Numbered from the stretch's first letter, positions 6,226 to 63,432 are shown. The stretch: 64,000 nucleotides of DNA from Nannocystis bainbridge (GCF_028368995.1 NZ_JAQNDL010000003.1:576001-640000), one strand, 5' to 3'. Program-made: numbers and translations. Notes: generated from the sequence alone by a model not told the origin.

Positions 6226-6305
6226 GGACATGCCCTCACGGACATGCCCCATGCGTCATGCCCCATCGGACATGCCCCATCGGACATGCCCTCGCGGACA
6301 TGCCT
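6226..6305. repeat. 14-bp-phased palindrome array (6 units) abutting the purQ stop
   Basis: ggacatgcc-type units at 6226, 6240, 6254, 6268, 6282, 6296. Confidence 0.92.
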
Positions 6306-7129
6306 TAGCGCGACGCGATCGCCCGCACGCCGCCGGCCAGCAGGTGCAGGCCGAGCCCGTGCTCCGGCAGCGTCCCGGCCTCGCGCTGGGCGATCCAGTG
6401 CGGGTGGTTCTCCGGGTACAGGTACGCCTCCGGGTGCGGCATCAGCCCGAACACGCGGCCGCTCGGGTCGCACAGGCCGGCGATCCCACCTGGCGAGCCG
6501 TCGGGGTTGTCGGGCCAGCGCTCGGTCGGCGCCCCGGTCTCGTCGGCGTAGCGGACCGGGATGAGATGCCTGTCCTCGAGGACCTGTCGCAACGGACCTG
6601 TCTCGAAGACCAGCTTGCCCTCGCCGTGGCGGCTCGGCAGCTCGATGGTCGGCGGCAGGTCGCGGGTGAACACGCACGGGCTGGCGCGGTCGACCGCCAG
6701 GCGGACCCACGCGTCCCAGTAGCCGAGGCGGTCGTTCATCACCAGCGAGACCCGCTGCTGCAGCCCGGGCTCCAGGCCCGGCAACAGGCCCAGCTTGACG
6801 ATGGTCTGAAAGCCGTTGCAGATGCCGAGCACCAGCCCGCCGGCCTCGACGTGGCGCTGCAGCCGTTCGCCCATGCGGTAGCGCAGGCGGTTGGCGAACA
6901 CCCGGCCGCTGGCGATGTGGTCGCCGAAGCTGAAGCCGCCGATGAACACCACCAGCGGGTGGCCGGCCAGCGCGTCGTCGTCGGCGATCGCGTCGGCGAC
7001 GTGGCGCGCGGTCACCCGGGCCCCGATCGTCTGCAGCGCGGCGCACGTCTCGGCCTCGCAGTTGAGGCCGTAGCCGGTCAGGACCAGCGCGCGCACCTCG
7101 GCGGCGCCCTCGATCGCCAGCGGGTTCAT
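6305..7129 (-). CDS. purQ: phosphoribosylformylglycinamidine synthase glutaminase subunit
   Basis: GYGLNCE, GGFSFGD, LGICNGFQ (catalytic Cys), NPDGS, GLMPHPE; ATG 7129 overlaps the purL stop (ATGA). Confidence 0.95.
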   Translation of the reverse strand: MNPLAIEGAAEVRALVLTGYGLNCEAETCAALQTIGARVTARHVADAIADDDALAGHPLVVFIGGFSFGDHIASGRVFANRLRYRMGERLQRHVEAGGLVLGICNGFQTIVKLGLLPGLEPGLQQRVSLVMNDRLGYWDAWVRLAVDRASPCVFTRDLPPTIELPSRHGEGKLVFETGPLRQVLEDRHLIPVRYADETGAPTERWPDNPDGSPGGIAGLCDPSGRVFGLMPHPEAYLYPENHPHWIAQREAGTLPEHGLGLHLLAGGVRAIASR

Positions 7130-10100
7130 CGCTGCACCTCCTGCGCCCGCGCCGGCAGCGGCGCCGGTGGCCCGTGCAGCGCCGCCGGGCGGAACCGTTC
7201 GCGCAGCGCCGCCGCCGTCAATTCGACGATCGTCTGGGCTCCACGGCGCACGCGGAGCCAGCCGCCGCCGTCCTCGCCCGGCGCCGCGACCTGCCCCAGC
7301 GCCTGCAGCCCGTGCCCGCCGAGCCGCGCGGTCAGCTCGCCCGCGGCCGCCGGCTTGCACGTGAAGACGATGCGCCCGGTGCTCTCGCTGAACAGGAACT
7401 CGGCTGGCGTCAAGGACATGTCCTCCGGGACCGGTCGCAAAAGCTCATCGGTGACGGCGACCTCGAGCCCGAGCTCGCCGGCCAGCGTCATGTGGGCCAG
7501 GGCGACCGCCAGGCCGCCGCGGCCGGCGACGTGGGCCGAGCGGACCAGGCCGGCGTCGCGCGCCGCGGCGAAGGCGGCGTAGCGGGCCGCCGCGGCCGCG
7601 AGGTCGGTCGTCGGCACGCCGTGCAGGACGAGCCCGCGCTGGCGCGACAGCTCGCTGCCGCCGAGGTGCCGGCCGGTCGGGCCGAGCACGAACACGAGGT
7701 CGCCAGCGGCGATCGGCGCCAGGTCGAGGGCGCGCCGCACGTCGGGCATCTGACCGATCACCGAGACCAGCAGGGTCGGCGGGATCGAGATCTTCACGCC
7801 GCCGAGGTGGGCGTCGTTCTTCATCGAGTCCTTGCCGCTGACGAGCGGGACCCCGAACGCCTCGCAGGCGGCCCGCAGGCCCTCGCAGCAGCGCACCAGC
7901 TGGGCCAGCTTGTGCTCGCCGTCGGGCGTCTTGTCGCTCTGCACCGGGTCCGGCCAGCAGAAGTTGTCGAGCGCCGCCAGCCGATCGATCCGCGCCCCCG
8001 CGCACAGCGCCCGCCGCACCGCCTCGTCGACGCACGCGCGCGCCATCGCGTCGGTGTCGAGGTCGCCGTAGTGCGGGTGCACGCCCTCGGCCAGGATCAC
8101 GCCCTCGGGACGCAGGTGACGCGCGCGCATCACCGTCGCCGTCGACGGCACGTCCTGACGGGCCCCGACCCACGGCTTGACCACCGACAGGCCCTTGACC
8201 TCGTGGTCGTAGCGGCGCCCCAGGTGCTCGTGCGAGGCCATGTTCGGCCGCACCAGCATGTCCAAGAGGTCATGGCCGATCGAACCTGGCGCATCGGCCA
8301 GGCGCTGCTCGCCGAGCACCGCGGCGACCGCTGCCGGCGCGCTCTCGGGCCGCGCCGGCGGGCTCCAACGGGCCCGCAGCGGCACCCGCGGGGTGCCCTC
8401 GTGGAGGAACTCGAGGCCCAGGTCGAGCACCGGCTTGCCGGCCCAGGTGGCGCGCAGCCGGCCGCTGCTCGTGAACTCGCCGAGCGGGGTGGCCTCGACC
8501 TCGCGCCGGCGGGCCAGCTCGAGCAAGGCCTCGAGCCTGTCCTTCGGGACAGCCAGCGTCATGCGCTCCTGAGCCTCGGAGATCAGGACCTCCCACGGCA
8601 TCAGCCCGGGGTACTTGAGCGGCGCGAGCGCGAGGTCGATGTCGGCGCCGCCGGTGAAGGTGGCCATCTCGCCGATCGACGACGAAAGGCCGCCGGCGCC
8701 GTTGTCGGTGAGGCCGCTGTAGAGCCCGAGCTCGCGCGCCTCGGTCAGGAAGTCGGCGACCATCTTCTGCGTGATCGGGTCGCCGATCTGGACCGCCTGC
8801 ACCGGCGACGACTCGTCGAGCTCGACGCTCGAGAAGGTGGCGCCGTGGATGCCGTCCTTGCCGATGCGCCCGCCGAGCATGACGACGACGTCGCCGGCGC
8901 GCACGACCTTCTCGGCGGTCGGGCGCCCGGCCGAGGTCACCGGCATGACCGCGACGGTGCCGCAATAGACCAGCGGCTTGCCGGCGTAGCGGGCGTCGAA
9001 CAGCTCCCAGCCGCGGCTGTAGGGGATGCCGGATTGATTGCCGCCGTCGATGACGCCGCGGTGCACGCCGTCGCGGATCTTCCGCGGATGCATGAGCCCG
9101 GGCGGCAGCTGGCCGGCGAAGTCGGGCTCGCCGAAGCAATAGCCCCACACGTTGGTCAGCAGGTCGGCGCCGAGGCCGGTGCCGAGGCTGTCACGATTGA
9201 CGCCGACGATGCCGGTCATGGCCCCGCCATACGGGTCGAGGGCCGACGGCGAGTTGTGCGTCTCGACCTTGTAGACGAGGTGATCGGCGTCGCTGAAGCG
9301 GACCACGCCGGCGTTGTCGTGGAACACCGAGACGAGGAACGGCGCGTCGCCGTCGTCCGCCGCCCGGGCCGCCGCGATCGCCTCGGTGGCCCCGCGGATG
9401 TACGTGCGGAACAGGCCGCGATCGATCGTCCGCGTGGCGCCGTCAGGGTCGGTGTACTCGATCGGCGCGGCGAAGATCTTGTGCTTGCAGTGCTCGCTCC
9501 ACGTCTGCGCCAGGCACTCGAGCTCGGCGTCGGTCGGGTCGCGGCCGAGATCCACGAAGTGGCGCTGAATGGCCCGCATCTCCGTGAGCGTCAGCGCGAG
9601 CATGCCCTGCGTGCTGATCCGCATCAGCGTCGCGTCGTCGGCCGCGCCCAGCGCCACGGTGGCGACCACCGCCTCGTGGACCCCGCCGGCCCGCGGCACC
9701 GCGAACGCCTGCGGCCGCGGCGAGCGCTCGAGCGTCGCCCGCTCGATCAGCGGGTTGTGCAGCTCTCGCGCCGCTCGCTCGGCGTGGGCCTCCTCGAGGC
9801 CCCAGATCGCATAGGTGGTGCCCGTATAGACCTGCCCGCGCAGGGCCCGGCCGAGGCAGTCCTCCGCGGCTCGCTTGACGCTGGTGCCGACGCTGTCGGT
9901 CACGCCGGGGCGAAAGCCGATCGTCAGCAGCCAGGGATGGCCGGCGGCCCCCGCGGGCGCGCCGAAGTCGTCGGCGAGGGCGCCGATGGCCCCGACCTCG
10001 GCGACCGGATCGGTGAGCGCCGCGAGCACCTGCCGGGCCTCGTCCGGGCTGATGTCCAGATCGAGCCAATAGACCTTGCGCGACCGCAGGCCGGTCGGGT

Positions 10101-10233
10101 GCAGACCCGCGAGCTGCGCACCGGTCGCCGTCGCCAGCGCGTCGCTCAGGTCCGGCCGTACCGCGATCTCGAGCCGATACGTGCAGAGCTCGGGGACCGT
10201 CTCATGTGGATGCTCCGCTGATCGCTGGGCCAC
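7126..10233 (-). CDS. purL: phosphoribosylformylglycinamidine synthase synthetase subunit with N-terminal PurS-like region
   Basis: QTWSEHCKHKIF, KVETHNSPSALDPYGGA, DNGAGGLSS, SEAQERM, LDNFCWPDP, SGKDSMKN, LFSES; start uncertain. Confidence 0.95.
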   Translation of the reverse strand: MAQRSAEHPHETVPELCTYRLEIAVRPDLSDALATATGAQLAGLHPTGLRSRKVYWLDLDISPDEARQVLAALTDPVAEVGAIGALADDFGAPAGAAGHPWLLTIGFRPGVTDSVGTSVKRAAEDCLGRALRGQVYTGTTYAIWGLEEAHAERAARELHNPLIERATLERSPRPQAFAVPRAGGVHEAVVATVALGAADDATLMRISTQGMLALTLTEMRAIQRHFVDLGRDPTDAELECLAQTWSEHCKHKIFAAPIEYTDPDGATRTIDRGLFRTYIRGATEAIAAARAADDGDAPFLVSVFHDNAGVVRFSDADHLVYKVETHNSPSALDPYGGAMTGIVGVNRDSLGTGLGADLLTNVWGYCFGEPDFAGQLPPGLMHPRKIRDGVHRGVIDGGNQSGIPYSRGWELFDARYAGKPLVYCGTVAVMPVTSAGRPTAEKVVRAGDVVVMLGGRIGKDGIHGATFSSVELDESSPVQAVQIGDPITQKMVADFLTEARELGLYSGLTDNGAGGLSSSIGEMATFTGGADIDLALAPLKYPGLMPWEVLISEAQERMTLAVPKDRLEALLELARRREVEATPLGEFTSSGRLRATWAGKPVLDLGLEFLHEGTPRVPLRARWSPPARPESAPAAVAAVLGEQRLADAPGSIGHDLLDMLVRPNMASHEHLGRRYDHEVKGLSVVKPWVGARQDVPSTATVMRARHLRPEGVILAEGVHPHYGDLDTDAMARACVDEAVRRALCAGARIDRLAALDNFCWPDPVQSDKTPDGEHKLAQLVRCCEGLRAACEAFGVPLVSGKDSMKNDAHLGGVKISIPPTLLVSVIGQMPDVRRALDLAPIAAGDLVFVLGPTGRHLGGSELSRQRGLVLHGVPTTDLAAAAARYAAFAAARDAGLVRSAHVAGRGGLAVALAHMTLAGELGLEVAVTDELLRPVPEDMSLTPAEFLFSESTGRIVFTCKPAAAGELTARLGGHGLQALGQVAAPGEDGGGWLRVRRGAQTIVELTAAALRERFRPAALHGPPAPLPARAQEVQR

Positions 10234-10475
10234 GGGGCCTTGCTTGGCGCAGGACCACTCCGCTGTCAATCGCGCCTCCGGCCGGCTAGAGAGGAGTTTC
10301 CGCAAGGTCGAGCCTTGACAACCGCGATCCCGTCATGCAAAAGTCCGGACGAGGCTGACGCTTGGAGTGTCTGGTCTGGCGACTTCGTCGCCGTGACGAG
10401 TCGCTCGCTCGTTGTGATTTCCGTGGCGTCGGCACGGCCCTTTACGGGCTTCGCATACCGCTCCGAGGTTCATCT

Positions 10476-11093
10476 GTGAACAATCTGCCCCCCGGCCCTG
10501 CGGGCCTTGTGGACGATCGGCAAGAGCCGGTCCGTGACGCTTGGGCCGAGTCCCTGCGCGAAGTATTCGTCGACGTCATCAAGCAGCTGCCGAGCACCGT
10601 CACGCTCGGCGAGTTGGTCGAGGTCACGCGACAGAACCCCGCCCTCGCCCCGGTGCTCGATCACTACACCGTCCAGGAGCTCATCGACCTGGTGAAGGAC
10701 CGCCCGCGCTCGGCCGACCCGCTCGGCGCCGCCGCTGCGGCCGCCGTCGCCGCCGCCGCCGCCGCCAAGGTCAGCGAGCCGCAGTTCGACGAGGACGGCA
10801 ACCCGCTGCTCGACCTCGACGCCGGCTCGGCCGTCATCCGCCGCCGCGCCGACGCGCCCGACGGCGACCTCCGCCTGCTGCGCGCCCTCCTGCGCCAGAA
10901 GACCGGCCGCCGCGAGCCCGAGCTCGTGCAGGCCACCGGCCTCGCCTCCGACCAGGTGCGCCTGATCCTCCGCAACCTGCGGACCCGCGGCTACATCCAC
11001 ATCGAAGGCACCGGCGTCAAGCGCCGCGTCAAGATCACCCGCCACGGGGCCGGCTACCTGCGCAAGCTCGACCCCACGGCCGTGATCGCCTGA
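10476..11093 (+). CDS. winged-helix DNA-binding protein with N-terminal helical domain and Ala linker
   Basis: C-terminal ELVQATGLASDQVRLILRNLRTRGYIHIEG...VKIT wHTH pattern; GTG start preceded by GAGG. Confidence 0.75.
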   Translation: MNNLPPGPAGLVDDRQEPVRDAWAESLREVFVDVIKQLPSTVTLGELVEVTRQNPALAPVLDHYTVQELIDLVKDRPRSADPLGAAAAAAVAAAAAAKVSEPQFDEDGNPLLDLDAGSAVIRRRADAPDGDLRLLRALLRQKTGRREPELVQATGLASDQVRLILRNLRTRGYIHIEGTGVKRRVKITRHGAGYLRKLDPTAVIA

Positions 11094-11111
11094 GCTGCTC
11101 GCTGTCCCGCG

Positions 11112-11163
11112 GAGCATGTCCTCCGCGCCATGCTCGTCAGGACATGTCCTGAAGCGCATGTGC
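11112..11163. repeat. 14-bp-phased palindrome array (4 units)
   Basis: Units at 11112, 11126, 11140, 11154, between convergent genes. Confidence 0.85.
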
Positions 11164-11211
11164 TCTCGGTCGTCCGCGACGCGTCCGCCCCCCTGACCTC
11201 CCCCGCGCACG

Positions 11212-11243
11212 AAAAGCCCCGCCGCGTCGCCGCGAGCGGGGCT
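11212..11243 (-). terminator. intrinsic terminator of the vWA lipoprotein gene
   Basis: Stem agccccgc...gcggggct followed on the minus strand by TTTT. Confidence 0.65.
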
Positions 11244-11285
11244 CTCGTCACGCCCAGATACGGATGGTAGGGCGGCGGCGCGGGC

Positions 11286-12770
11286 TCAGCCCGGCACTTC
11301 CAGGGTCTCGCGGAGGATGCCGGCGAGGCAGTTGATCGCGTCCGAGAAGTCGTCGTCGCAGATCGACTCGATGCAGCAGCGGACCTTGTCGTCCTCGTTC
11401 AGCGACTGGCACACGTCGATGACGCGGGTGTTGGGGATCGCCTGGCCGGTGGCGGCGTCGGTGCAGCCGGGCCCGATGCCGAAGTCGTACTCCTTCTGCG
11501 CCGGGCTGTCGGTGTCGCCGGGCAGGATGTCGCCCTGGTTCCACACGCGGTAGACGAGGTCGAGCACGCCGCCGGCGGTCGGCTCGAACGGCGGCTCCGG
11601 GTTGTGCTCGGTCACCTTCGGCACGCCGAGGATGCCGAGCATGATGACGTCCTTCTTCTTCTGCTGGACCAGGTTGGTCTTGAGGTAGCCGATGTAGCGC
11701 GACAGCGGCTGCAGCACGCCCTTGTCCTCGGACATGCAGCTCTCGTAGATGCCGTCGGCGTTGGCGTCGACGCACGACACGCCGGCGTTGAAGCACGTCG
11801 CGCTGGTCGGCTCGTCCTTGACGCCTGGCTGGCCCGGCGTGTCCTCCCAGTACTGGTTGAACATCGGGTCGCTGGCGAGCTGCGGGTCGAAGTACTTGTA
11901 GTCCTTGACCGAGCACTCTGCCTCGTCCGTCAGGACGACGATCGCCAGCACCGCGCCGTCACGCAGGAACGGCTTGTTGCCCTGGTTCCACGGCTTGTTC
12001 GGGTCGAGCGCCTGCAGCATCGTCTCGAGCGGCGCCTCCATGCCGCAGCCGTCGATGCCCTGCGGGCCGATGCACGACAGCGCCTGCGCGACCGGGTCGC
12101 CGCCGTTCGGGTCGGCGTTGAGGATGTTGTCCTGGTCGAGCTGGAAGTTGATGAACGGGTCCGACGGGACCACCGAGCCCTTGCAGCCGTTGTTGCAGGC
12201 CTGCTCGACCTGGACCGGGTTGGCGCCGAGACCAGTGAAGCGGCCGATGCGGTCGACGCACGCGGTGTTGATCGGCGCGCCCTTGGCCGGGTCGTAGTCG
12301 GGCTTCTCGAACGGCGAACACAGCGGGTGACCGAAGTCGGTCGTCGTCACCATGATGTTGATGTTCGCGTTCACCGGCTTCTCGTTCTCGTCGGTGACGT
12401 TGCGCAGCTTGTCGATCAAGTACGGGAAGTTGGCCGCGAGGTTGGTCTGCTCCTCGCCCATCGTCCCCGAGTTGTCGATCACGAACAGCACGTCGAGCAG
12501 GTTGCACGCCGAGTCGGTGCCGCAGCTGCTCGCCGACGAGTCGTCCGGCGGCAGGTCGAACTTCATGCCCCCGGTCGTCGGGTTGACCGAGGTCATGCCC
12601 TCGGTCTCGTCAGGACCGGAGGTGAGCGTCAGGCCACCGGCGATCCCCGTCATCTGATTGGTGGTGACGTTGTCGGTGTCAGCCTTGTTGTCGTCGCCGC
12701 AACCGAAGAGCGCGAGCCCGAGCACGGAGAGGACGGTGAGGCGCTGTAAGTGTGAACGCTGAATGGTCAT
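11286..12770 (-). CDS. myxobacterial vWA-domain Cys-rich lipoprotein
   Basis: Lipobox LFGC; DVLFVIDNSGTM MIDAS motif; FLRDGAVLAIVVLTDEAECS. Confidence 0.85.
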   Translation of the reverse strand: MTIQRSHLQRLTVLSVLGLALFGCGDDNKADTDNVTTNQMTGIAGGLTLTSGPDETEGMTSVNPTTGGMKFDLPPDDSSASSCGTDSACNLLDVLFVIDNSGTMGEEQTNLAANFPYLIDKLRNVTDENEKPVNANINIMVTTTDFGHPLCSPFEKPDYDPAKGAPINTACVDRIGRFTGLGANPVQVEQACNNGCKGSVVPSDPFINFQLDQDNILNADPNGGDPVAQALSCIGPQGIDGCGMEAPLETMLQALDPNKPWNQGNKPFLRDGAVLAIVVLTDEAECSVKDYKYFDPQLASDPMFNQYWEDTPGQPGVKDEPTSATCFNAGVSCVDANADGIYESCMSEDKGVLQPLSRYIGYLKTNLVQQKKKDVIMLGILGVPKVTEHNPEPPFEPTAGGVLDLVYRVWNQGDILPGDTDSPAQKEYDFGIGPGCTDAATGQAIPNTRVIDVCQSLNEDDKVRCCIESICDDDFSDAINCLAGILRETLEVPG

Positions 12771-13029
12771 GTGAGCTCCCTGGCGGGCCGTGCCGCGCGA
12801 GCAGTCCTTCGTGCCACCATCGCACATGCTCGCAGCACAGCGCCACGGAAATTCGTGGCGCTAAGCGTGAGGCATTCCGTCCCCACGTTCGCAAAGATGG
12901 GCGAGAGAACTCACGATTACGTGCGACGCCTTCGCCCTGCGATGACACGGGCGGCAGCACCGCCGGCCATGCACGCGAACTTCGTCGCGCACTGTCCGAG
13001 CGCGCGCGCTGACGCGGGCTCGCGCGCGC

Positions 13030-17922: not shown

Positions 17923-17960
17923 TTACATGCCCCATGGGTCATGTCCCCAAGGACATGTCC
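17923..17960. repeat. 14-bp-phased palindrome array (3 units)
   Basis: Units at 17923, 17937, 17951; perfect TGTCC-CCAA-GGACA at 17942. Confidence 0.85.
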
Positions 17961-18016
17961 TGAAGCATCCTCGGCCCCCGCGCCTCGCCGACCTGTCCCG
18001 AAGTATCATCGCCGGC

Positions 18017-20146: not shown

Positions 20147-20211
20147 GACGCGCACCGGCGAAGATTCGCCCCGCGAGCCGGCGATCGTCAAGGTATCCTC
20201 GCCGGCGCCGT

Positions 20212-23200: not shown

Positions 23201-23472
23201 CCGCCACGCCGACCACCCCGAGCTGCGGCCCGGGCGACGACGGCACGTTCGCCTGCGGCCCCGGCCCCGGCCCCGACGACCCGACCACCGGCGGCCCCGG
23301 CAGCGACAGCGAGGGCTCGGACAGCACCGGCGAGGCCCCCAGCTCCGACACCGCCACCGCCGGCGAGGTCGGCACGATCACCTGCGCCTGCCGCAGCGAC
23401 GCCCCCGTCGACTGGCGCCAGCTGCTGCTCGCCGCCCCGCTGCTGCTCCGCCGGCGCCGCAAGCATGGCTGA
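20212..23472 (+). CDS. M4 (thermolysin-like) metallopeptidase with propeptide, EGF-like/Cys-rich repeats and MYXO-CTERM-like anchor
   Basis: YNNAFWD, AHEYSH, GALNESFAD, DYGGVHINSGIPN; C-terminal CAC...LLLAAPLLLRRRR. Confidence 0.93.
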   Translation: MPSRRLSLFSASLVSLAMIPLAGAAEPTGKHAAGNKTLGKPLARVVAADHPAARPRPLSLAQAGKAAAPAPFVRAALIDLAARSSEPARVRLDPAHGTLRRFDGRVANPHGLGVRACEALLAEHRDVLGLAAAPGAADLVQTRVINGDAGDLALHYDVRFRGLPVWGAEVRAHFDASGALTSIAAQNLGRLDPPQLVKFGADAARVRARRANGPDAVDRRAVDLGPAELGVWPQSHDRGGVLAWRLLQTVSLAEGGYQHFETYVDAEAGRVLARRPLVATETVNSTTGTANDHFGKQVTLRLSHYPGKGEYGLYDRSKGLAAATLQTLDAGNSDLPGNAALATSKTKTAWTAAEATAHAHMQKVIDYFQATHARNSWDGKGAAVEQLIHYGQAYNNAFWDPYNKHMAIGDGDKLIFKEFTRSLDVSAHEYSHAVITGTANLVYQNQPGALNESFADVMAMMIDRDDWVLGEDVVGPGFGAPFARSFIDPNLGGQPKHMEKIYKGTDDYGGVHINSGIPNHAAYRLAIARSRELVEKVWYRTLYKGHIGSQASFVDMAQGTVAACKELIALGQATGADCTATAEAWVDVGVLAASDVPKDGCPDKSSEKDGLCYCDPGFVPSGDGTACVALGGVDCPANSIEANGLCLCQDGFKPNQDGSQCVAEQNGCPLNSGWDAAKKKCVCDPGFEGAPNAPDGKCEPVESDCPADAHPEWADPMDQADYTCACNDNFEDDGNGNCVVIAGTCGNESFFGRCDGDTLVYCQPGVPDDEIHGIDCAGEGLVCGKFDSVVGYDCLNPDGKGAAATCDADGYQECGAGNPFCVSEQDASTGFCSHECKAGGDCESAYDCCASVSDGTRACLVDPYCAENIDTKATCKDIPGGSTFHGKCVGDVLVYCDGSTGVTQEVFCVKEGKECGFVDKATGYSCVDPDSGALPEAPADWCPHEKDGSCDVPDLCPEGSDGADCNACGDIGEAGACDGDLLKFCDPDDGLVTTDCAATPTTPSCGPGDDGTFACGPGPGPDDPTTGGPGSDSEGSDSTGEAPSSDTATAGEVGTITCACRSDAPVDWRQLLLAAPLLLRRRRKHG

Positions 23473-23526
23473 AAGAGCATGTCTCTCCGGGCATGCCCTT
23501 CGGGGCATGTCTCCGAGGACATGTAT
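23461..23526. repeat. 14-bp-phased palindrome array (5 units) overlapping the peptidase stop
   Basis: Units at 23461, 23475, 23489, 23503, 23517. Confidence 0.9.
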
Positions 23527-23698
23527 CTCTATAAAATCTCCGAAGCGCTGGCCTGCTCCGATGGGGCTGGTCGGTATGGCTACGAGCTCGAGATTCCGTC
23601 AGCCTCGCCCGCCGAAATCATCCGAGGCCGCGAGACCGGGCCCCACGCTCGAGCCCGATGGACATCCCTGCCTTGTCCTGCTCTCCTGTGTGCTCGCC

Positions 23699-26076: not shown

Positions 26077-26661
26077 TCACGTCGACCGCGTGAACTCGTC
26101 GATCTCGCCGCGCAGCCACGCCGTGAAGTCCGCGTAGTCGTGCGCCTCGGCCGACACCCGGGCCCCGCCCTCGCGCTTGCGGGCGAACAGCGGCTCCTCG
26201 GCGTGGTGGCGGCACACCGGGTATTCTGGCCCGGGCGCGCTGGTGTCGAAGCACCACTGCCCGCCCCCCCCGGCGTCGGCGAACGCCACCAGGTGGTCGG
26301 TGACGATCGCGTACTCGCTGCCGTCGTCGTCGACCCACCGCACCCCGGGCCCGACGCGCACGTGCTCGCGCGTGTGCGCGGCCGCCTCGCGCGGCGTGTA
26401 CGCGCACAGCTCCACCACCTCGCCGGCCGCGTCGAGCACCCGCAGCGAGCCGAACGACGCCATGAACGCGCTCCAGCTCGGCGGCGGCGAGAACTCGACC
26501 TCCGGCCGCAGCGCCGCCACTAGTTCGCTCAGCACCGCCGGTGGCACCGCCCCGTAGACCGCCCCGAGGTCGCGCTCGGCCGCCACGGCGATCAGCCCGT
26601 AGACCAACTCGTCGAGGCCGCCGCTGCCCCCCTTGCCCTTCGCAACTGTCTTTCGCGCCAT
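26077..26661 (-). CDS. SMI1/KNR4 (SUKH) family protein
   Basis: PPPSWSAFM, LVAFADAGGGGQWCFD, DFTAWL pattern. Confidence 0.75.
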   Translation of the reverse strand: MARKTVAKGKGGSGGLDELVYGLIAVAAERDLGAVYGAVPPAVLSELVAALRPEVEFSPPPSWSAFMASFGSLRVLDAAGEVVELCAYTPREAAAHTREHVRVGPGVRWVDDDGSEYAIVTDHLVAFADAGGGGQWCFDTSAPGPEYPVCRHHAEEPLFARKREGGARVSAEAHDYADFTAWLRGEIDEFTRST

Positions 26662-26750
26662 GTCCTCTCCGACCTTGCCCTTCGGACCTGCCCTCTACGC
26701 CATGTCCGGATCGACCTTGCCCTTCGGACCTGTCCTCCATGACATGTCCG
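26656..26750. repeat. two 42-bp repeats, each made of three 14-bp motif units
   Basis: gccatgtcc....cgaccttgcccttcggacctg(c/t)cc repeated at a 42-bp distance. Confidence 0.8.
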
Positions 26751-26810
26751 AGAGCCCCCGGCCCCGGCCTCGCGCTTCGGACCTGTCCTTCATTCCCTGC
26801 CCCGAGCGCC

Positions 26811-27599
26811 TCAGAAGCGCAGGCGCAGCCCCGCCCCGCCGGTCCATTGCAGCCGCGTCGGCCCGAGGGCGATGCTGTCGAGCTTGCGCTTCGACTTGAC
26901 CGCCTGCACCAGTAGGCCGATGGCTGCCCCGGTCACGAACAGGCCGAAGAGCCCGCTCCAGTAGCCGCCGGCCACCAGCCCGCCCTTCGGCTTCTCCGCC
27001 TCTTTCATGGGCAGGCCGCCCATAGCGTTCCAGTCCAGCGCCTCCGCGTACTCCTTCTTGCGCTGGACATGGATCGTCAGCATCGCCGCCGCGCCCCCGA
27101 GCGCCCCGAGCCCGAGCACCAGCAGCCCGGCGCCGAGCCCGATCTGCCGCTTGTACGCGCCGGCGATCCGCACCCGCCGTCGGCCGAGCTCGTCGATGCG
27201 CTGATCGACCAGCATCTGCTCGTCGGGCGACGCGTGCGGGCGGAACGCCTGGTACTCGCTCACCGCGGTGTTGAGCTTGCCCTGCGCCTCCGCCAGCACC
27301 GCCAGGTTGAAGTGCATCGGCCGCCAGTTCGGCGCGAAGAAGGCCACCCGGCGGAACTCCGCCTCCGAACCGACGTAGTTCCCCTTATTAAAATGGTCGA
27401 CCGCCTTGAAGGCGTGCTTCTGCGCCTGAGGGTTAAGCGCCTCCGTCAGCTCCGCGCTCGCCGGCTCCGGCTGCTCCGCCTCGGCCGGCTCCCCCGCCTC
27501 GCGCGCATGGACCGTCGTGGGCGCGGCCAGCGAGGCCGCGCACGCGCAGGCCACGGCCGCGCGGCCGAGCCTTCGACATGCTGTTTCGGACATCTTCAT
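26811..27599 (-). CDS. TPR-containing exported/membrane protein (paralog 2)
   Basis: Signal peptide; VAFFAPNWRPMHFNLAVLAEAQGKL TPR; two hydrophobic segments; ends GGAGLRLRF. Confidence 0.8.
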   Translation of the reverse strand: MKMSETACRRLGRAAVACACAASLAAPTTVHAREAGEPAEAEQPEPASAELTEALNPQAQKHAFKAVDHFNKGNYVGSEAEFRRVAFFAPNWRPMHFNLAVLAEAQGKLNTAVSEYQAFRPHASPDEQMLVDQRIDELGRRRVRIAGAYKRQIGLGAGLLVLGLGALGGAAAMLTIHVQRKKEYAEALDWNAMGGLPMKEAEKPKGGLVAGGYWSGLFGLFVTGAAIGLLVQAVKSKRKLDSIALGPTRLQWTGGAGLRLRF

Positions 27600-30711: not shown

Positions 30712-30751
30712 CCATATCCGTGCGCCGCTGCTACAGTCAACGCACCCCCGG

Positions 30752-35633: not shown

Positions 35634-35798
35634 CGTCGCACGGCCGGCGGCATCGCCGCCACCGCTGGCGAACCCCGGGACCGCCGCGAAATCGCTCGTC
35701 CCGCGGCGCCACCTCGCTGGCCACCGAACATCGGCCGCGAGCGACCCACATCGCCTGTCGCTGTCCTCCGGCGAGCAGCGTCCGCGGCTCGCGGAGAA

Positions 35799-35853
35799 TC
35801 ACATGTCCCGATGGACATGTGCTCATGGCCATCCTCGGCTGTCCCCCAGGACA
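35799..35853. repeat. motif array containing two perfect TGTCC-N4-GGACA sites
   Basis: 35804..35817 and 35840..35853, downstream of the Coq4-family gene. Confidence 0.85.
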
Positions 35854-37213: not shown

Positions 37214-37236
37214 ATGCGCGGGCCGTGGGTCCCGAT

Positions 37237-37366
37237 CGACATGTCTGCCAGGACATGTCCCCGTGGACAGTCATCCACACGCGCTCGCTCCGAAGAACGG
37301 GCCCGACCGCCTTGACGCATCGCCTGGCGTAACATGCATGTCCTTTAAGACATGTCCTCATGACAT
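37237..37366. repeat. two short 14-bp-phased motif arrays between convergent TetR genes
   Basis: TGTC at 37242 and 37256 (perfect site 37256..37269); TGTC at 37339 and 37353. Confidence 0.8.
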
Positions 37367-38380: not shown

Positions 38381-38393
38381 CATCGGAGGACCC

Positions 38394-38972: not shown

Positions 38973-38998
38973 GCCGCCGCAGAGTCATCTATCCCTCG

Positions 38999-39052
38999 GT
39001 ACATGTCCTCTCGAACATGCCCATCGAGACATGCTCTTCAGAGCATGTCCCG
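38999..39052. repeat. 14-bp-phased palindrome array (4 units) between convergent genes
   Basis: TGY at 39004, 39018, 39032, 39046, each preceded by CA. Confidence 0.88.
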
Positions 39053-39055
39053 AAC

Positions 39056-46953: not shown

Positions 46954-47199
46954 GCCGGGCAATCCTGCGCCAGGCTACCACGTCGCCGCCCCACCGGTGA
47001 GTTGTCACCTTACCCACATATCACACCTTAACTTACCAAACCCGCCAAACGCCCCTGCGACCGCCTGGAGGCCCGAATCGGCAGCATCACCCCTTCATCA
47101 AACTCGCCCGCGACACCCACGGCCAGCCACGAGGCGCGACCCCCGACCCGCCCGTCGAGCGCCGAGAGTACAGTCGAAAATTACCGGCGAGATCCAAGA

Positions 47200-47280
47200 G
47201 TACATGCTCGAAAGGACATTACCTCGAGAACATGTCTATCATAACATTTCCCCAAAGACATGCCCTCGAAGACATGTCCT
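47200..47280. repeat. 14-bp-phased palindrome array (6 units)
   Basis: NRACAT units at 47200, 47214, 47228, 47242, 47256, 47270 with unrelated spacers. Confidence 0.9.
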
Positions 47281-47370
47281 TATGACCTTACCCTCTCCCG
47301 CATCGTCCACGTCGTCGGCAGCGCGCGAGCATGCCTTCATGCATCACCGGCCGACCTCGAGACGCCCCCG

Positions 47371-50663: not shown

Positions 50664-50787
50664 GCTCCCGGGTTACCGGATCACTCGCGCGTTTTCAAGC
50701 GTGGATGAATCCTTATCGAGTCGACGACGCGCCCGGGTCCATCGCCGCGTGCTCGCCGGGCCCCGTGTTAGGCTCCGCGGCCTCGGG

Positions 50788-51612: not shown

Positions 51613-51616
51613 TCAC

Positions 51617-51685
51617 CACCTGTCCCGCGAGACACCTCGACATGGCCCACGGGACAGCCCATCAAAACATGTCCCGAGAGACAGA
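51617..51685. repeat. cluster of 14-bp gapped palindromes after the SDR stop
   Basis: TGTCC-CGCG-AGACA at 51621; TGTCC-CGAG-AGACA at 51670. Confidence 0.75.
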
Positions 51686-52191: not shown

Positions 52192-52228
52192 CCGCATGTC
52201 CCCGAGGACATCTCCCGACGACCATGGC
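52192..52228. repeat. 14-bp-phased motif array (3 units)
   Basis: Units at 52192, 52206, 52220; perfect site 52197..52210. Confidence 0.8.
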
Positions 52229-52290: not shown

Positions 52291-52298
52291 GAATGTTG

Positions 52299-52385
52299 CG
52301 GAACGGGAGGGATTCGAACCCTCGGTAGAGTTTCCCCTACACAGGTTTAGCAAACCTGCGCCTTCAGCCACTCGGCCACCATTCC
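52299..52385 (-). tRNA. tRNA-Ser (GCT), no encoded CCA
   Basis: GGAATGG acceptor stem, CAGGT-TTGCTAA-ACCTG anticodon arm, long variable arm, GGTTCGAATCC. Confidence 0.96.
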
Positions 52386-52557
52386 ATGCGCAGTCAGGTT
52401 GTCGGACGCCGCGTCCCAGGGGGGCCCGCGGGGTCTCGGAACCTAGCCGCATCGCTCGCCGGTTGCAAGGGTCCGGGGCACCCGCCAAAATCACACCCCG
52501 ACCGACAGCACAGCGGCGCCTTGTGAGATCTGGCCGCCCCCGCCACACTCAGCGCGA

Positions 52558-53422: not shown

Positions 53423-53496
53423 GCATCCGTAGCTCAGTTGGATAGAGCGTCGGTCTACGGAACCGAAAGTCGTAGGTTCGAATCCTTCCGGATGCG
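53423..53496 (+). tRNA. tRNA-Arg (ACG), no encoded CCA
   Basis: GCATCCG..CGGATGC acceptor stem, TCGGT-CTACGGA-ACCGA anticodon arm, GGTTCGAATCC. Confidence 0.96.
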
Positions 53497-53497
53497 C

Positions 53498-53533
53498 AGC
53501 GAGAGGGGCCCCCACCGGGGCCTCTCTCGCTTT
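53498..53533 (+). terminator. intrinsic terminator of tRNA-Arg
   Basis: agcgagaggggcccc...ggggcctctctcgct followed by T residues. Confidence 0.8.
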
Positions 53534-53668
53534 CTGCGTCTGCAGATCTTCCCGCCGAGGCCGCCGCGAGGGTCGACGCCTGCTCGACGCGGCGTCGGCT
53601 CGCCGGTCGATCGTCCGCGAGCCGGCGACCTCGGCCGCGCCGGTCCGCGGCCCCCGCCTGTCGCGCCG

Positions 53669-53720
53669 GAGCATGAATCTTCGGACATGTCCCTTCAGAC
53701 ATGCCTGAAGGGTCATCCCT
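53669..53720. repeat. 14-bp-phased palindrome array (4 units)
   Basis: Units at 53669, 53683, 53697, 53711. Confidence 0.85.
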
Positions 53721-57262: not shown

Positions 57263-59344
57263 ATGGACAACCGACCCTTGCCGCCCTGGTTGCCGCTGCT
57301 CCTCGGGCTTCTCGCCGGAATCGCCGTCCTCGGCGGTCTCGATCCTGTCTATCCCGGCGCCATCGCCTTGCTGACCGGCGCCGCCGGTTACTACATCGGC
57401 ATGCAGGCCGACAAGCAGCTCGCGCGGGCCGGCGACGAGCGGCAGGCCCTGCGTGAGGTCGAGGCGCGCAGCCACCAGTCCGAGCGCGCCCTGCACGACG
57501 CCACCGCCCACGCGCAGAGCCTCCAGACCCAGGTCCAGGAGCTCGCCGGGCGCCTGCAGAATTGCCAGGCCCACGGTCAGGAGCTCGCCGCTCGTCTGCA
57601 GGCCGACGCCCATCAGCTGCGCAACGCCGAGCTCGAGCAGCGCAGCCTCACCGCTCGCCTGCAGGAGGTCACCGCGCGCGCCCAGGAGCAGGCCGGGCGG
57701 GCCCAGGCCGCCGAGGTGCGGCTCGCCGATCTCGAGACCCGCCTGCAGGACGCCCAGTCCGAGAACCGCGCCCTGCAGCAGAGCGTGCGCGGCGGCGTGC
57801 CCGAGCTCGACGTCCTGCGCAACGAGCTCGAGACCGTGCGCCGCGGCGCCAACGAGACCCGGCACCGCCTCACCAGCGAGCTCGAGGCCTCCCGGCGCGA
57901 GCAAGAGGCCACCGCCGCCGATCTCGGGCGGATCCAGGGCCGCCTCGCCGAGGCGCTCAACCAGCGCGACGGCGCCGTGCGCGACGCCGAGGAGCTGCGG
58001 CGCATGCTCGACGAGGGCGGCCTGAGCTCCCGGGGCATCGACGCCGAGGCCACCGCGCTCATGCAGGAGCTGTCCGAGGGGCTCGGCACCACCACCGGCG
58101 CGCTCGAGGAGACCTCGCAGGCGCTCAACAACGTCAACGGCGGCCTCAAGGGCATCGCCGACAACGTCGAGCTGCTGGCCAGCAACGCCGAGGAGAGCGC
58201 CAGCTCGATCCTCGAGATGGCCGCCGCCAACGACGAGGTCGCCGAGAGCATGTTGAACCTCGCCGCCAGCGTGCAGGAGACCGCCACCTCGATCGAGGAG
58301 ATGACCTACTCGGTCAAGGAGGTCGCCAAGAACATCGAGGCGCTGAGCTCCACCGCCGAGGAGACCTCGCTGGCGATGACCGCCATGGACACCTCGATCC
58401 AGCAGGTCGAGAACAACGCCAACGAGACCGCCGGCCTGTCCGAAGAGGTGGTGTGGGCCGCCGAGGGCGGCGTCGACGCCATCAACCAGACCATCGAGGT
58501 CATCAACCTGATCAAGACCTACTCGGCCGACGGCGTGGCCGTCATCAGCCGCCTGGGCGAGCGCATCAGCGAGATCGGCAAGATCCTCAGCGTCATCGAC
58601 GACGTGTCCGAGCAGACCAACCTGCTCGCGCTCAACGCCGCCATCATCGCCGCCCAGGCCGGCGAGCACGGCAAGGGCTTCGCCGTCGTCGCCGACGAGA
58701 TCAAGGACCTCGCCGAGCGCTCCGCCAGCAGCACCAAGGAGATCGCCGACATCATCAAGGCCGTCCAGCGCGAGAGCCGGAACGCCGTCGAGGCGGTGCA
58801 GCGCTCGAGCAAGTCGGTCGACGACGGCGTGCGCGTCAGCCACCAGGCCGAGGACGCGCTCAAGCGGATCTCCGACGCCGCCCGCCGCTCCACCGGCATG
58901 GTCCGCGAGATCGCCCGCGTCGCCGTCCAGCAGACCCAGAACTCCAAGCAGGTCACCGACGCCATCAACGTCGTCGCTACCACCGTGCAGCAGGTCGCCA
59001 CCGCCACCAGCGAGCAGGCCCGCGGCGCCGAGCAGATCATGCGCTCGGCCGAGAAGATGAAGACGATCACCCGCCACGTCGAGCGCTCGACCCAGGAGCA
59101 GACCCGCGGCTCGCGCCAGATCACCCGCGCGATCGAGACGATCAGCGAGATGGTCAGCCAGCTCAGCAAGGCCCACCGGGCCCAGACCCAGGGCGCCGAC
59201 CAGATCGTCGAGGGCCTCAAGTCGGTCAAGGAGGGCATGACCTACCAGCGCAGCCTCTACGAGCAGCTCAGCTCGAGCGTCGGCGTCACCCCGCCGCGCC
59301 GCCAGCCCTCGCGCAACAGCAAGCCCGGCCCCGCGCGCATGTGA
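57263..59344 (+). CDS. methyl-accepting chemotaxis protein with two N-terminal TM segments and a long coiled coil
   Basis: [43 protein letters not shown]. Confidence 0.95.
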
Positions 59345-59350
59345 CCTCGA

Positions 59351-59411
59351 GGGCATGTCCGCGGGGACATGCCCGTGGGGACATGCCCCTTCGCGCATGT
59401 CCCCGGGGACA
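59351..59411. repeat. 14-bp-phased palindrome array (5 units) right after the MCP stop
   Basis: Units at 59351, 59365, 59379, 59393, 59407; perfect sites at 59356 and 59398. Confidence 0.92.
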
Positions 59412-59489
59412 AGAGCCGCCTCCGTGCGGCCCCCCGCCCAGCTCTGTCCTGCCCCCCGACCCGCGCCCGCTCGCCCCGCCGCCTGCCGC

Positions 59490-60110
59490 CCGGCCCTCCG
59501 CGCGGGCCCTGTACCTCGGACCAGCTCGCCGCCCGCCGCCTGGCCCTCCGCGCGACCTGTCCCTCGGACCAGCTCGCCGCCTGCCGCTCTGGCCCTCCAC
59601 GCGGACCTGTCCCTCGGACCAGCTCGCCGCCTGCCGCCGGCCCTCTACGCGGGCCTTGGACCTCGGACCAGCTCCGCGACGCGCCGCCGGCCTTCTACGC
59701 GGGCCTTGGACCTCGGACCAGCTCCGCGACGCGCCGCCGGCCCTCTACGCGGGCCTGTCCCTCGAACCAGCTCGCCGCCTGCCGCCTGCCCCTCCGCCGG
59801 ACCCTCCGCGGACCTGTCCCTCGGACCAGCTCGCCGCCTGCCGCCTGCCTTTCTCCTCGACTCCAGCGGCCCATCGGGTAGCTGTCGCTCAGTCGCGGAC
59901 CTGTCCCTCGGACCAGCTCGCCGCCTGCCGCCTGCCTTTCTCCGCGGACCTGTCCCTCGGACCAGCTCGCCGCCTGCCTCTCTACGCGGACCTGTCCCTC
60001 CGGCCAGCCTCGCTGCCTGCTCCTCCGCGTAAACCTGTCCCTCGGACCAGCCTCACCGCCTGCCCTTCCGCGCCGACCTGTCCCTTGGACCAGCCTCGCC
60101 GCCTGCCCCT
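59490..60110. repeat. minisatellite of about 12 copies, mostly 43-50 bp apart
   Basis: Core GGACCTGTCCCTCGGACCAGCTCGCCGCCTGCC; cctcggaccagc-like core near 59514, 59562, 59612, 59661, 59711, 59760, 59819, 59906, 59954, 59997, 60040, 60083. Confidence 0.92.
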
Positions 60111-60296: not shown

Positions 60297-61037
60297 GTGT
60301 TCGGCATCGGCATCACCGAGATGATCCTGGTCGGGCTCGTCGCCTTGATGCTCTTCTCCCCGCGCGAGCTGCCCAGCCTGATCAAGACCCTGGCCGGCAT
60401 CTACGGCAGCATCCGCCGCACGGCCGAGCAGTTCCGGGCCCAGGTCATGGAGGCCGACGAGCTGCGCGAGCCGATCGAGGAGATCCGGGCCGCCTACCAC
60501 GGCACCAAGGCCGAGCTCGACGGGGCCCGCGACGTCGCCCGCCGCGAGCTCCAGCGCGCCCGCATGGAGGTCGTCAAGGCCCAGCAGAAGATCAACGAGA
60601 TCGCCCGCGAAGAGGCCAAGCGCCCGCCTGTCCCTGGGGACATGCTCGCCGGGACAGGTCCTTCGACGCAGGTCTCTTCGGCCAGCCAGGCCGTCGCCGC
60701 CGCCTCCGCTGCCACGGCCGCCGCCTCCGCGGCCACGGCCGCTGCCTCCGCTGCCACGGCCGCCGCTGCCGCCTCGTCCGCCGCCGCCGAGGCCCCGACC
60801 GCCACCGCCTCGACCGTCGCCGCCGAGGCTGCCCCGCGCGCCGTCCCGGCCGCCGCCACCGTCTCGACCGTCGCCGCCGAAGCCGCCCCGCGCGCCGTCC
60901 CGGTCGCCGGCACCGTCTCCTCCGCCCCGCCCGAGGCGGTCCCGCGCGCCGTCCCGGTGCCGGGCGCCGTCCCGGTCGAACCCGCCTCGCGCGTGGCCGC
61001 GCCGGGCCGCCCCGTCAACGAGCGTGACGTCGCATGA
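60297..61037 (+). CDS. tatB: twin-arginine translocase subunit TatB-like, with Ala/Pro repeat tail
   Basis: FGIGITEMILVGLVALMLFSPRELP; directly upstream of tatC with ATGA overlap. Confidence 0.85.
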   Translation: MFGIGITEMILVGLVALMLFSPRELPSLIKTLAGIYGSIRRTAEQFRAQVMEADELREPIEEIRAAYHGTKAELDGARDVARRELQRARMEVVKAQQKINEIAREEAKRPPVPGDMLAGTGPSTQVSSASQAVAAASAATAAASAATAAASAATAAAAASSAAAEAPTATASTVAAEAAPRAVPAAATVSTVAAEAAPRAVPVAGTVSSAPPEAVPRAVPVPGAVPVEPASRVAAPGRPVNERDVA

Positions 61038-62358: not shown

Positions 62359-63321
62359 ATGTTCCAGCTTCGCTTCTCGCCGCTCCTGGCCGTGTTCCTC
62401 GCCGTACCTGTGCTCCTGTCCGCCTGCGTGTGCGGCCCCGGGCCCAACGTGGGCGGTTACGACGACCCCTCCGGCAAAGACCCGCCGCGCTCGCTCCAGG
62501 GCGTCAAGTTCATCGAGAGCGAGAAGGGCGAGCCCGAGGTCATCGGCTGCGCCGACGGCCAGCGCGAGGGCTTCGCCGACCTCACCCGGCACAAGCGGGT
62601 CGCCGGCTGCCTCGCCACCTGGGAGGGCACCAAGAGCCTGCGCGACAAGCCGACCGGCAAGGTCTGCGGCGACGACAAGGGCGTCTGCACCTCGCCCGCC
62701 GACGCCTGCTCCAAGGGCTGGCACGTGTGCGGCTACCAGGGCAAGCACGAGGACCTCAAGCGGCACACCACCGCCAACGCCTGCAACAAAGAGGCGGGCC
62801 CCGGCAAGTTCGTCGCTGCCATGAGCCACGGTCAGACCGAGGACCTGTGCCCGCCGCCGCCGACCGCCGAGACCGTGTTCCCGTGCATGGACTCGGGCAT
62901 CTGCTCCGAGCCGGTCTGCTGCGGTGACGGCTGCGCGTTCGGCAAGTGCCGCGACGCCATCTGGCGCGGCCAGACCAAGATCTCGCTCGGCAAGGCCGAG
63001 GGCTGCGGCTCGGTCACCTCCGAGCGCAACGGCGGCATCCTGTGCTGCTACGACGGCGACGGCGACCCCGCCGCGGCCGCTGGCGGCGAGACCCCGCCCG
63101 CCGGCGCCGACCCGACCACCCCGCCCGCCGGCACCGACCCGGGCACGCCGCCGACCGGCGCCGCTCCGACCGGCACCCTGCCGACCGGCGCCCCGGCTGG
63201 CGCCGCTCCGACCGGCACCACCCCGGCCCCGTCGACCGCCACGCCCACCGACCTCACCGTCCCGACCGGCGGCCCCGCTCCGACCCCCGGCACCAGCGCC
63301 AAGAAGCCCGGCTCCAAGTAG
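62359..63321 (+). CDS. Cys-rich lipoprotein with Pro/Thr tail
   Basis: Lipobox LSAC; GCADGQREGF, CSKGWHVC, GGILCC. Confidence 0.82.
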   Translation: MFQLRFSPLLAVFLAVPVLLSACVCGPGPNVGGYDDPSGKDPPRSLQGVKFIESEKGEPEVIGCADGQREGFADLTRHKRVAGCLATWEGTKSLRDKPTGKVCGDDKGVCTSPADACSKGWHVCGYQGKHEDLKRHTTANACNKEAGPGKFVAAMSHGQTEDLCPPPPTAETVFPCMDSGICSEPVCCGDGCAFGKCRDAIWRGQTKISLGKAEGCGSVTSERNGGILCCYDGDGDPAAAAGGETPPAGADPTTPPAGTDPGTPPTGAAPTGTLPTGAPAGAAPTGTTPAPSTATPTDLTVPTGGPAPTPGTSAKKPGSK

Positions 63322-63353
63322 CCGACCTCGCGGCCTGCCGCGCCTGACTCGAG

Positions 63354-63432
63354 GGACATGCCCACCCGGGCATGTCCCTTTTCGCATGTCCTCGCGAACA
63401 TGTTCGCGAGAACATGTCCGAACCGCCATGCG
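63354..63432. repeat. 14-bp-phased palindrome array (6 units)
   Basis: Units at 63354, 63368, 63382, 63396, 63410, 63424. Confidence 0.92.

Follow-up and report, generated by a model that had tools for sequence, protein, structure and literature searches.

What are the strings of short palindromes that follow gene ends in the soil myxobacterium Nannocystis bainbridge, and what might read them? The question is raised by a 64,000-nucleotide stretch of its genome (GCF_028368995.1, NZ_JAQNDL010000003.1:576001-640000; C2:576001-640000 in our contig numbering, hereafter the window, with positions counted from its first letter), in which gapless tandem arrays of a 14-bp module adjoin stop codons on either strand. 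An earlier note, made from this sequence alone, had proposed that the arrays mark gene 3' ends and avoid divergent promoter regions, and had offered three mechanisms for them: a protein roadblock or termination signal, a structure that stabilizes mRNA 3' ends, or a nucleoid-protein site purged from promoters. We followed these proposals through the whole genome (11.05 Mb in five contigs, 71.5% G+C) and its relatives, and find that the positional rule is right, that the motif also lies within genes genome-wide and is confined to one genus, and that the arrays resemble a docking site for a putative DNA-binding protein more closely than they do the usual signal for stopping transcription. Among the three mechanisms, the terminator and mRNA-structure readings are less supported, and the protein site purged from promoters fits best. 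Gene coordinates throughout are those of a codon-usage gene finder built for this analysis, which yields an uncurated annotation of 8,055 genes (83% coding); since the N. exedens genome announcement gives 9,278 coding sequences in 12.1 Mb (PMC5658511), a higher count per Mb, we take the present gene set to be about 5% short.

The repeat module is a 14-bp split palindrome, TGTCC-N4-GGACA, in which two 5-bp half-sites flank a 4-bp spacer (5+4+5), the very unit that the earlier note had delineated. Exact copies, TGTCCNNNNGGACA, number 14 in the window, where 0.01 would be expected, and 1,987 in the whole genome, where the reversed control has 3. The spacing between the arms is fixed, the same arms being found in just 3-16 copies at N2, N3, N5 or N6, with a range of 3-18 over other spacings in general. 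Modules abut without gaps, joining CA to TG in a 10-bp palindromic core, GGACATGTCC, and the sequences flanking the cores keep a strict 14-bp phase. The core has 956 genome copies, half as many as the exact module, against 2-48 for nine control palindromes of similar composition. Across 5,234 array ends the proximal half-site is present in 23.7%, the distal half-site in 2.5%, with a background of 1.3%. With a caller based on a position weight matrix (PWM) of the core and requiring at least two cores, we found 2,617 arrays, covering 117.7 kb or 1.07% of the genome, against 16 in the genome shuffled in 300-bp blocks. Scanning with a module PWM at 11 bits gave 6,685 loci with 9,686 modules, namely 4,918 singles and 1,767 arrays of at least two modules, against 610 singles and a lone array in the shuffled genome. 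Junction bases (C-A/T-G) reach 95-97% in the PWM and the adjacent GGA/TCC 70-77%, whereas the four spacer bases are almost free.

Arrays with two to six cores number 1,286, 273, 212, 187 and 88, respectively, so that the idea of paired hairpins, under which even core numbers would be favored, finds no such preference in the counts. Neighboring spacers are identical in 4.0% of cases against 1.8% by chance, barely above expectation, which indicates that the arrays are old rather than products of recent slippage; a few young duplications of 14, 28 and 42 bp were nevertheless seen. Nor are the arrays long perfect palindromes: spacer-spacer complementarity per position is at chance level and full reverse-complement spacers make up 2.6% of neighboring pairs against 1.6% by chance, the exception being a 32-bp perfect palindrome at 63380. 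Along the chromosome the module loci are clumped (coefficient of variation 1.39, dispersion index 3.2). Avoidance of CATG, as by restriction, was rejected, the tetramer being undepleted and, away from the arrays, unremarkable (observed/expected 1.24, with 6,661 of its 39,940 copies lying within arrays).

Where the arrays lie with respect to genes was determined for arrays of at least two modules in gaps of at least 28 bp. They occupy 584 of 1,269 convergent gaps (46%), 565 of 3,650 tandem gaps (15.5%) and 79 of 1,454 divergent gaps (5.4%), at densities of 2.13, 0.61 and 0.15 per kb, with rate ratios of 13.9 (convergent) and 4.0 (tandem) relative to divergent gaps. Equal density in divergent regions after length correction, which the earlier note had named as the outcome that would overturn its rule, is not what the genome shows: array-bearing convergent, tandem and divergent gaps amount to 145/328, 60/655 and 0/146 at lengths of 50-100 bp, to 235/420, 118/938 and 4/358 at 100-200 bp, and to 108/200, 105/595 and 10/298 at 200-300 bp, and the classes converge only above 500 bp, a range where unannotated genes are likely. 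The polarity sharpens with array length, the density of arrays of at least three modules being 1.32 per kb in convergent gaps, 0.26 in tandem gaps, 0.04 in divergent gaps and 0.006 in coding sequence; the 22 divergent gaps with such arrays, listed with an autoregulated binder in mind, are for the most part long ones in which 100-300 nt separate the array from either start. Median distances in tandem gaps are 37 nt from the upstream stop to the array and 175 nt from the array to the following start (71% are closer to the stop), and convergent gaps with arrays hold little else, only about 24 and 31 nt being left on their two sides. Arrays are commonly found 0-20 nt past stop codons, the TGA stop often forming part of a half-site, and the stop-to-array distance peaks at registers where the stop belongs to a half-site (TGACA, CATGA) or abuts one. 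Overall, 1,425 of the 5,617 gene ends followed by a gap of at least 50 nt have an array within 120 nt.

The frequency of arrays also varies with the genes themselves, rising from the lowest to the upper codon-usage quintiles from 23% to 50% in convergent and from 6% to 18% in tandem gaps, a trend compatible with arrays accumulating over residence time, whichever of the models weighed below applies. Stretches devoid of modules are likewise present. The view that such deserts represent foreign DNA had a mixed outcome: one of them, conserved, is made up of giant genes with internal repeats, and another is only partly conserved. A module-free stretch of 20 kb (C1:1508001-1522000) is an internally repetitive giant-gene region with paralogous segments that are 72-91% identical; five relatives keep it at 88-90%, and it probably represents a modular synthase cluster.

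The module is by no means limited to intergenic DNA. Gene bodies contain 713 exact modules against 3.0 after codon-order shuffling (about 240-fold) and 284 copies of GGACATGTCC against 8.3. The modules are spread along genes; in the window, 25 of 82 are intragenic, and the genes that hold them include the Pfam-supported purL, a carboxylesterase and an AlgX-like gene. At third codon positions, identity among five species is 95.9% in the arms of these 25 coding modules, compared with 87.1% for flanks of 45 nt and 79.5% for spacers (odds ratio (OR) 3.5; the species are non-independent). How a coding module can arise is illustrated by purL. Of 25 further orthologues listed for the family, 24 are colinear with it over the module-bearing region (300 nt, the remaining one having 303), and the codons of 24 were compared one by one. 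In Nannocystis they are GCT GTC CCG AAG GAC AGG where other genera mostly have GCC GTG CCG CCC GAG CAC, and the encoded peptide is AVPKDR rather than AVPPEH. As the region is colinear but its codons are altered, the module in this one traced example was made by substitutions, both synonymous and non-synonymous, and since it changes the protein and uses the rare codons GCT and AGG, a force acting on the DNA has overridden codon and amino-acid preference. A 14-bp insertion, in general, could not sit in an open reading frame.

In this respect the module resembles HIP1 of cyanobacteria, a repeat linked to cognate orphan DNA methyltransferases and quasi-periodic along the chromosome (10-90 kb). According to one study, HIP1 (GCGATCGC) is 15- to 300-fold over-represented and conserved both inside open reading frames and in the stretches between them, which is attributed to selection, with no RNA or peptide role found and a role in chromosome structure proposed (PMC5861425). 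The Nannocystis module is similarly hyper-abundant (1,987 copies against 3; 713 against 3.0 in genes) and conserved in genes and gaps alike. It differs, however, in sequence and in phylum, its palindrome is split around a free center of 4 bp, and its loci are clumped and form abutted arrays polarized to gene 3' ends, whereas HIP1 has neither arrays nor 3'-end polarity. Taken together, the Nannocystis arrays are REP-like (repetitive extragenic palindromic) in position but closer to HIP1 in behavior.

The arrays are vertically inherited and their half-sites, but not their spacers, are held in place. Five other Nannocystis genomes are syntenic over the window, their long matches being 87.5-94.6% identical, and arrays recur in the same gaps across the six species; of the 20 gaps that carry no array in this genome, 19 carry none in any relative recovered. 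Module number can change, as in one gap with 2, 10, 2, 6 and 2 modules in five species, and aligned orthologous arrays keep CATG in phase with altered spacers. In the closest pair of species (30 of 33 arrays alignable) identity is 97% for CATG, 89% for GGA/TCC, 78.5% for the spacer and 88-90% for the flanks; the corresponding values for the most distant pair are 90%, 70%, 58% and 76%. When units were ascertained in a third species, the ranking of CATG over GGA/TCC over spacer was seen in 10 of 11 comparisons, the eleventh having CATG at 0.827, equal to the general intergenic value of 0.829. Half-site identity exceeding spacer identity indicates that the half-sites are under purifying selection, or an equivalent directional force, and that the spacers are free.

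Across 185,579 species' genomes, a pattern of two adjacent cores was found at 78 loci, 75 of which belong to Nannocystis, Nannocystaceae or Myxococcales records. All ten other Nannocystis genomes contain modules, from 114 to 2,090 and scaling with assembly size, against 1-6 for controls; two sister genera have 161 and 87, and counts stand at background in all 12 remaining genera sampled from the family and in the 16 sampled from the class. Abutted modules are essentially confined to Nannocystis, with 206 in one genome (G001) against 1, 1, 0 and 0 in four sister-genus genomes.

What, then, are the arrays? We tentatively favor, at somewhat less than even confidence, the view that they are the multimerized intergenic form of a genus-wide hyper-abundant module, which would be a putative double-stranded DNA site for a dimeric sequence-specific protein. 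A site read in the duplex is favored because the constraint is base-specific rather than pair-specific, as seen in the identity ranking and the lack of covariation between arms; because the module is near-symmetric with respect to transcription (among 2,794 tandem-gap units, 17 of 18 mirrored comparisons are non-significant at p<0.01), with fixed spacing and a free spacer; because the module is also present, and selected, within genes; and because the arrays are non-mobile, their polarity rises with array length and the organism has ordinary terminators besides. In geometry the arrays may be likened to known operators. The met-boxes of MetJ are gapless head-to-tail palindromes, and sites of the CRP/FNR type are 5-N4-5 with the outer TG/CA most conserved. 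Those operators stand at promoters, a few per genome, whereas Nannocystis has thousands of sites that avoid promoters.

In the mechanism we envisage, a putative dimeric protein would recognize TGTCC-N4-GGACA in the duplex, with single sites scattered over genes and gaps, and abutted 14-bp sites would let several dimers bind side by side, each turned by 120 degrees relative to the last. Arrays of this kind would be placed at the ends of transcription units, chiefly between convergent genes, and kept out of promoter gaps because a protein block there would disturb initiation. As candidate functions, the bound platform might block read-through or insulate against it, might be a topological or gyrase-type site at which positive supercoils accumulate, or might anchor the nucleoid. 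Gyrase and IHF bind the bacterial interspersed mosaic elements (BIMEs) of gamma-proteobacteria. A bolder version, possible but doubtful in our estimation, would make the arrays a new form of chromosome punctuation, in which a genus-specific protein polymerizes on them to create sequence-defined insulators between convergent genes, acting as roadblock and/or supercoil barrier, while single in-gene modules serve a genome-wide structural or self-recognition role, in effect a second, independent system of the HIP1 type whose positional logic can be read.

Several observations weigh against a duplex-DNA site. Arrays hug stop codons (with sharp peaks at 0-15 nt as well as the short tandem median), as an mRNA 3'-end element would, and 470 of 724 array-bearing tandem gaps (65%) have no other terminator in a crude scan. 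One stem position carries G 611 times and C 488 times (p = 2e-4), an asymmetry expected from G·U tolerance, and arrays with folds predicted to be as stable as -23 to -55 kcal/mol cannot, if transcribed, be structurally neutral. Conservation alone, furthermore, cannot separate selection from sequence-biased neutral drive, and the orthologue tests draw on a single 64-kb syntenic region, which supplies some 30 arrays and 25 coding modules, in species pairs that are non-independent. Finally, the binder is a putative one, and that a protein reads the module as duplex DNA is something we infer.

The first of the other explanations, in our judgment unlikely, is an RNA element in the manner of REPs: arrays in 3' untranslated regions would fold, halt or slow RNA polymerase and/or shield mRNA from 3' exonucleases, and would do so in both directions because they are palindromic. 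As described in one account, REPs are short palindromic repeats that lie downstream of genes, with unidirectional and convergent gaps holding them and divergent ones rarely doing so, and are defined as imperfect palindromes, 20-40 bp long, one end of which bears a conserved GTAG or CGTC tag (PMC3733652). A further report has them proposed or shown as terminators, mRNA stabilizers and protein-binding sites, terminator and stabilizer being combined in E. coli (bioRxiv 10.64898/2026.03.23.713779). The Nannocystis arrays share with REPs and BIMEs the hundreds to thousands of clustered palindromes and the gap preference (46%, 15.5% and 5.4%), and their closeness to stops and near-filling of convergent gaps suit an element of the 3' untranslated region, where some loci place them by running from stop to array to canonical terminator. 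Nine arrays folded as RNA give -23 to -55 kcal/mol with z scores of -3.0 to -7.1, forming nested hairpins, and the stability is predicted on both strands. It arises because neighboring full cores pair over 10 bp, and not over the 5 bp of the single tetraloop hairpin per unit that the earlier note had drawn. Few classical terminators are present in the window, as that note had also observed: a consensus scan of the first 60 kb yields 13 sites, no excess over shuffles. The stem positions show a slight asymmetry of the G·U type, the overall G·U:A·C ratio being about 1.12.

The details of the stem nonetheless argue against recognition as RNA. Arm-arm covariation was not found, the mutual information of paired positions being 0.002-0.024 bits and C·A mismatches numbering 695 against about 740 expected under independence, and conservation is nearly strand-symmetric even where a gap has a single direction of transcription. 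Conservation within the module is highest at the outermost TG/CA. A preference for stable tetraloops was looked for and rejected, as the spacers comprise many different tetramers among which UUCG and GNRA types are not dominant. Of an intrinsic terminator the arrays have the stable GC-rich hairpin but not the directly following U-tract, TTTT occurring within 20 nt downstream in 2.3% of 952 tandem-gap arrays in a flat base composition. Arrays stand downstream of 5 and upstream of 0 of 102 tRNA calls (ARAGORN, some doubtful), and many stand-alone tRNA genes are instead followed by a GC hairpin and T tract, as read by eye in the downstream sequences. Mutual exclusion of arrays and classical terminators was also rejected: terminator-like sites are no rarer beside arrays (OR 1.4-1.6, the wrong direction), although the crude caller partly calls the arrays themselves. 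The 713 in-gene modules, with selection at synonymous sites, lie where a terminator would harm. Compared with REPs and BIMEs, moreover, the Nannocystis module is shorter (14 bp with 5-bp arms), ends in TG...CA without a GTAG or CGTC tag, has no G·U-rich signature in its stem and no associated REP-associated tyrosine transposase (RAYT); its units abut at a strict 14-bp period where REP units alternate with linkers, and its in-gene copies are substitution-made, REPs being essentially extragenic. Public RNA for window positions 5000-13000 is limited to metagenome and metatranscriptome contigs of relatives (shares 0.05-0.16, about 90-95% identity over genes), some of which end at, or 65 nt beyond, the stop at 11093; such contigs show neither transcript ends nor strand.

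A second explanation, which we hold to be rather improbable, dispenses with local function and invokes molecular drive, by an uptake or recombination preference or by biased repair, with copies amassing where constraint is weakest and slippage growing the arrays. The DNA uptake sequences (DUS) of Neisseriaceae and the uptake signal sequences (USS) of Pasteurellaceae are genus-level dialect words for preferential DNA uptake by the competence machinery, with thousands of copies in genes and gaps, including inverted pairs at terminator positions, and the Nannocystis module may be compared with them as a genus-specific word in genes and gaps. Drive would agree with a density gradient that is inverse to the expected functional constraint, with arrays that reach the stop codon and reuse it as half-site, with a purL module that arose against codon preference and with amino-acid changes, with the lower array frequency after genes of atypical codon usage, and with the occasional recent duplications and slight excess of identical neighboring spacers. 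Uptake sequences, however, are asymmetric, non-palindromic words without phased arrays; independent gains do not explain strict 14-bp abutment, and the loci are unevenly clumped. Repair drive of the Vsr type was rejected, PF03852 being missing here and present in only 1 of 10 congeners, and in the HIP1 study a similar conservation is taken as selection, not biased repair (PMC5861425). As for a transposase-spread miniature element of the REP/REPIN, BIME or MITE (miniature inverted-repeat transposable element) type settling in tolerant sites, it is very improbable: high copy number, palindromy and a REP-like 3'-side preference speak for it, but the genome (90.5% complete) has 0 matches to the RAYT/Y1 transposase (PF01797) in a search that matched 6 of 14 control genomes, the PWM has no GTAG or CGTC tag, spacers vary from unit to unit, arrays are inherited at orthologous positions, and modules made by substitution sit in intact conserved genes whose frames a 14-bp insertion would break.

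With a protein-docking site as the favored reading, the individual loci of the window (Table 1) can be set beside the predictions made for them. Pfam confirms the identities of purQ and the M4 peptidase, and an Rfam scan returns two tRNAs and nothing else. By our reading, 36 gene 3' ends are followed by intergenic DNA of 28 nt or more, and in 16 of them an array was called no farther than about 110 nt away. Of ten positions at which arrays had been said to overlap or closely follow a stop codon, called arrays stand at 6305, 23461, 11112, 37242, 39004, 51621, 59351 and 63354; that at 52192 turned out to be one good module with degenerate neighbors and that at 25996 two degenerate, uncalled units. 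The purQ stop abuts the last unit of its array, and the peptidase stop falls within a degenerate first unit. The array at purQ, 6224..6307, folds as RNA at -55.4 kcal/mol (z -5.3).

Table 1. Arrays, single modules and a terminator in the window
Feature	Position	Strand	Location	Remarks
Two arrays (2 and 5 cores)	1318..1458		47 nt past stop of + gene 87-1271	
Six-core array	6224..6307		Abuts purQ (minus strand) stop 6305-6307	Arrays at same place in 4 of 5 relatives
One perfect module	8538..8551		Within purL coding sequence	Substitution-made, indel-free relative to other genera
Three-core array	11110..11165		17 nt past stop of + gene 10509-11093	Convergent gap
Classical GC hairpin and T run	11225..11260	minus		Kept in all six species in alignment
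Two-core array	17935..17962		55 nt past stop of minus gene 18017-20119	This genome only; one match in relatives
Array	23461..23528		Degenerate first unit CATGGCTGA includes TGA stop of M4 peptidase gene 20251-23472	
Five-core array	26654..26751		Between tandem minus genes 26811-27554 and 26077-26661	42-bp super-period
Two-core array	27572..27599		After minus gene 27681-28526	Module number 2 to 10 across species
Two-core array and one module	35797..35853		After minus gene 35874-36575	
Two arrays	37235..37359		Convergent gap 37214-37463	One by each stop
Four-core array	38997..39052		83-bp convergent gap 38973-39055	Almost fills the gap
Six-core array	47198..47281		90 nt past stop of minus gene 47371-49539	
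Two-core array	51636..51676		After + gene 50788-51612	
One module	52197..52210		17 nt past cupin gene stop	Degenerate neighbors
Two-core array	53681..53708		Tandem gap, about 185 nt after tRNA-Arg	Exception: no protein-gene stop adjoining
Four-core array	59349..59404		Begins 5 nt past stop of MCP gene 57290-59344	
Five-core array	63352..63421		Convergent gap 63322-63652	Five units align in five species, CATG kept, spacers changed

The absence of arrays from divergent gaps was likewise borne out, both in the six gaps between protein genes (10234-10508, 20120-20250, 30703-30973, 36576-36637, 38097-38393 and 50643-50787) and in gap 52386-52557, between tRNA-Ser and the gene at 52558. The first three are free of modules in all six species, and the remaining three protein-gene gaps have no array in any species recovered (up to five relatives), with single sub-array matches in gap 50643-50787 in two of them. 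Ordinary terminators occur side by side with arrays. The hairpin and T run at 11225-11260 is the textbook terminator of minus gene 11286-12725, beside the array of the facing gene, and tRNA-Ser (52298-52385, minus), which faces the cupin gene, has its own hairpin and T terminator. So has the tRNA-Arg by 53423-53708, about 185 nt ahead of a two-core array. Outside the window, C2:2556665-2559233 packs about 30 tRNA genes into 2.6 kb of AT-richer DNA and resembles a mobile or phage-type tRNA array.

Other tandem repeats share the window with the arrays. A second family with a period of about 43-50 bp, at 59477-60107 and 63454-63650, has in each unit a module-like inverted repeat (CCTGTCC-N3/4-GGACC/GGACAGC), and its copy number is strongly variable among the six Nannocystis genomes. 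The repeats at 33496-33641, 25557-25773 and 60690-60978, with periods of 15, 18-60 and 9-54 bp, respectively, are coding (low-complexity protein) and unrelated to the 14-bp arrays.

In the literature on Nannocystis repeats, repetitive genome DNA and REPs in myxobacteria we found no description of such a repeat. About 1% of an 11-Mb genome consists of a single, seemingly undescribed 14-bp word that is conserved genus-wide under selection. Two classical puzzles posed by repeats in bacteria, polarity toward 3' ends as in REPs and hyper-abundance inside genes as in HIP1, meet here and are readable in one motif, in which constrained half-sites contrast cleanly with free spacers. The motif also provides a natural design of mutants by which sequence and structure could be told apart. 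The putative reader protein could be fished directly by DNA affinity, and in a genus mined for natural products the arrays offer a practical marker of transcription-unit ends. If the arrays do prove to be protein roadblocks or topological barriers, they would represent a new mode of transcription-unit insulation in bacteria.

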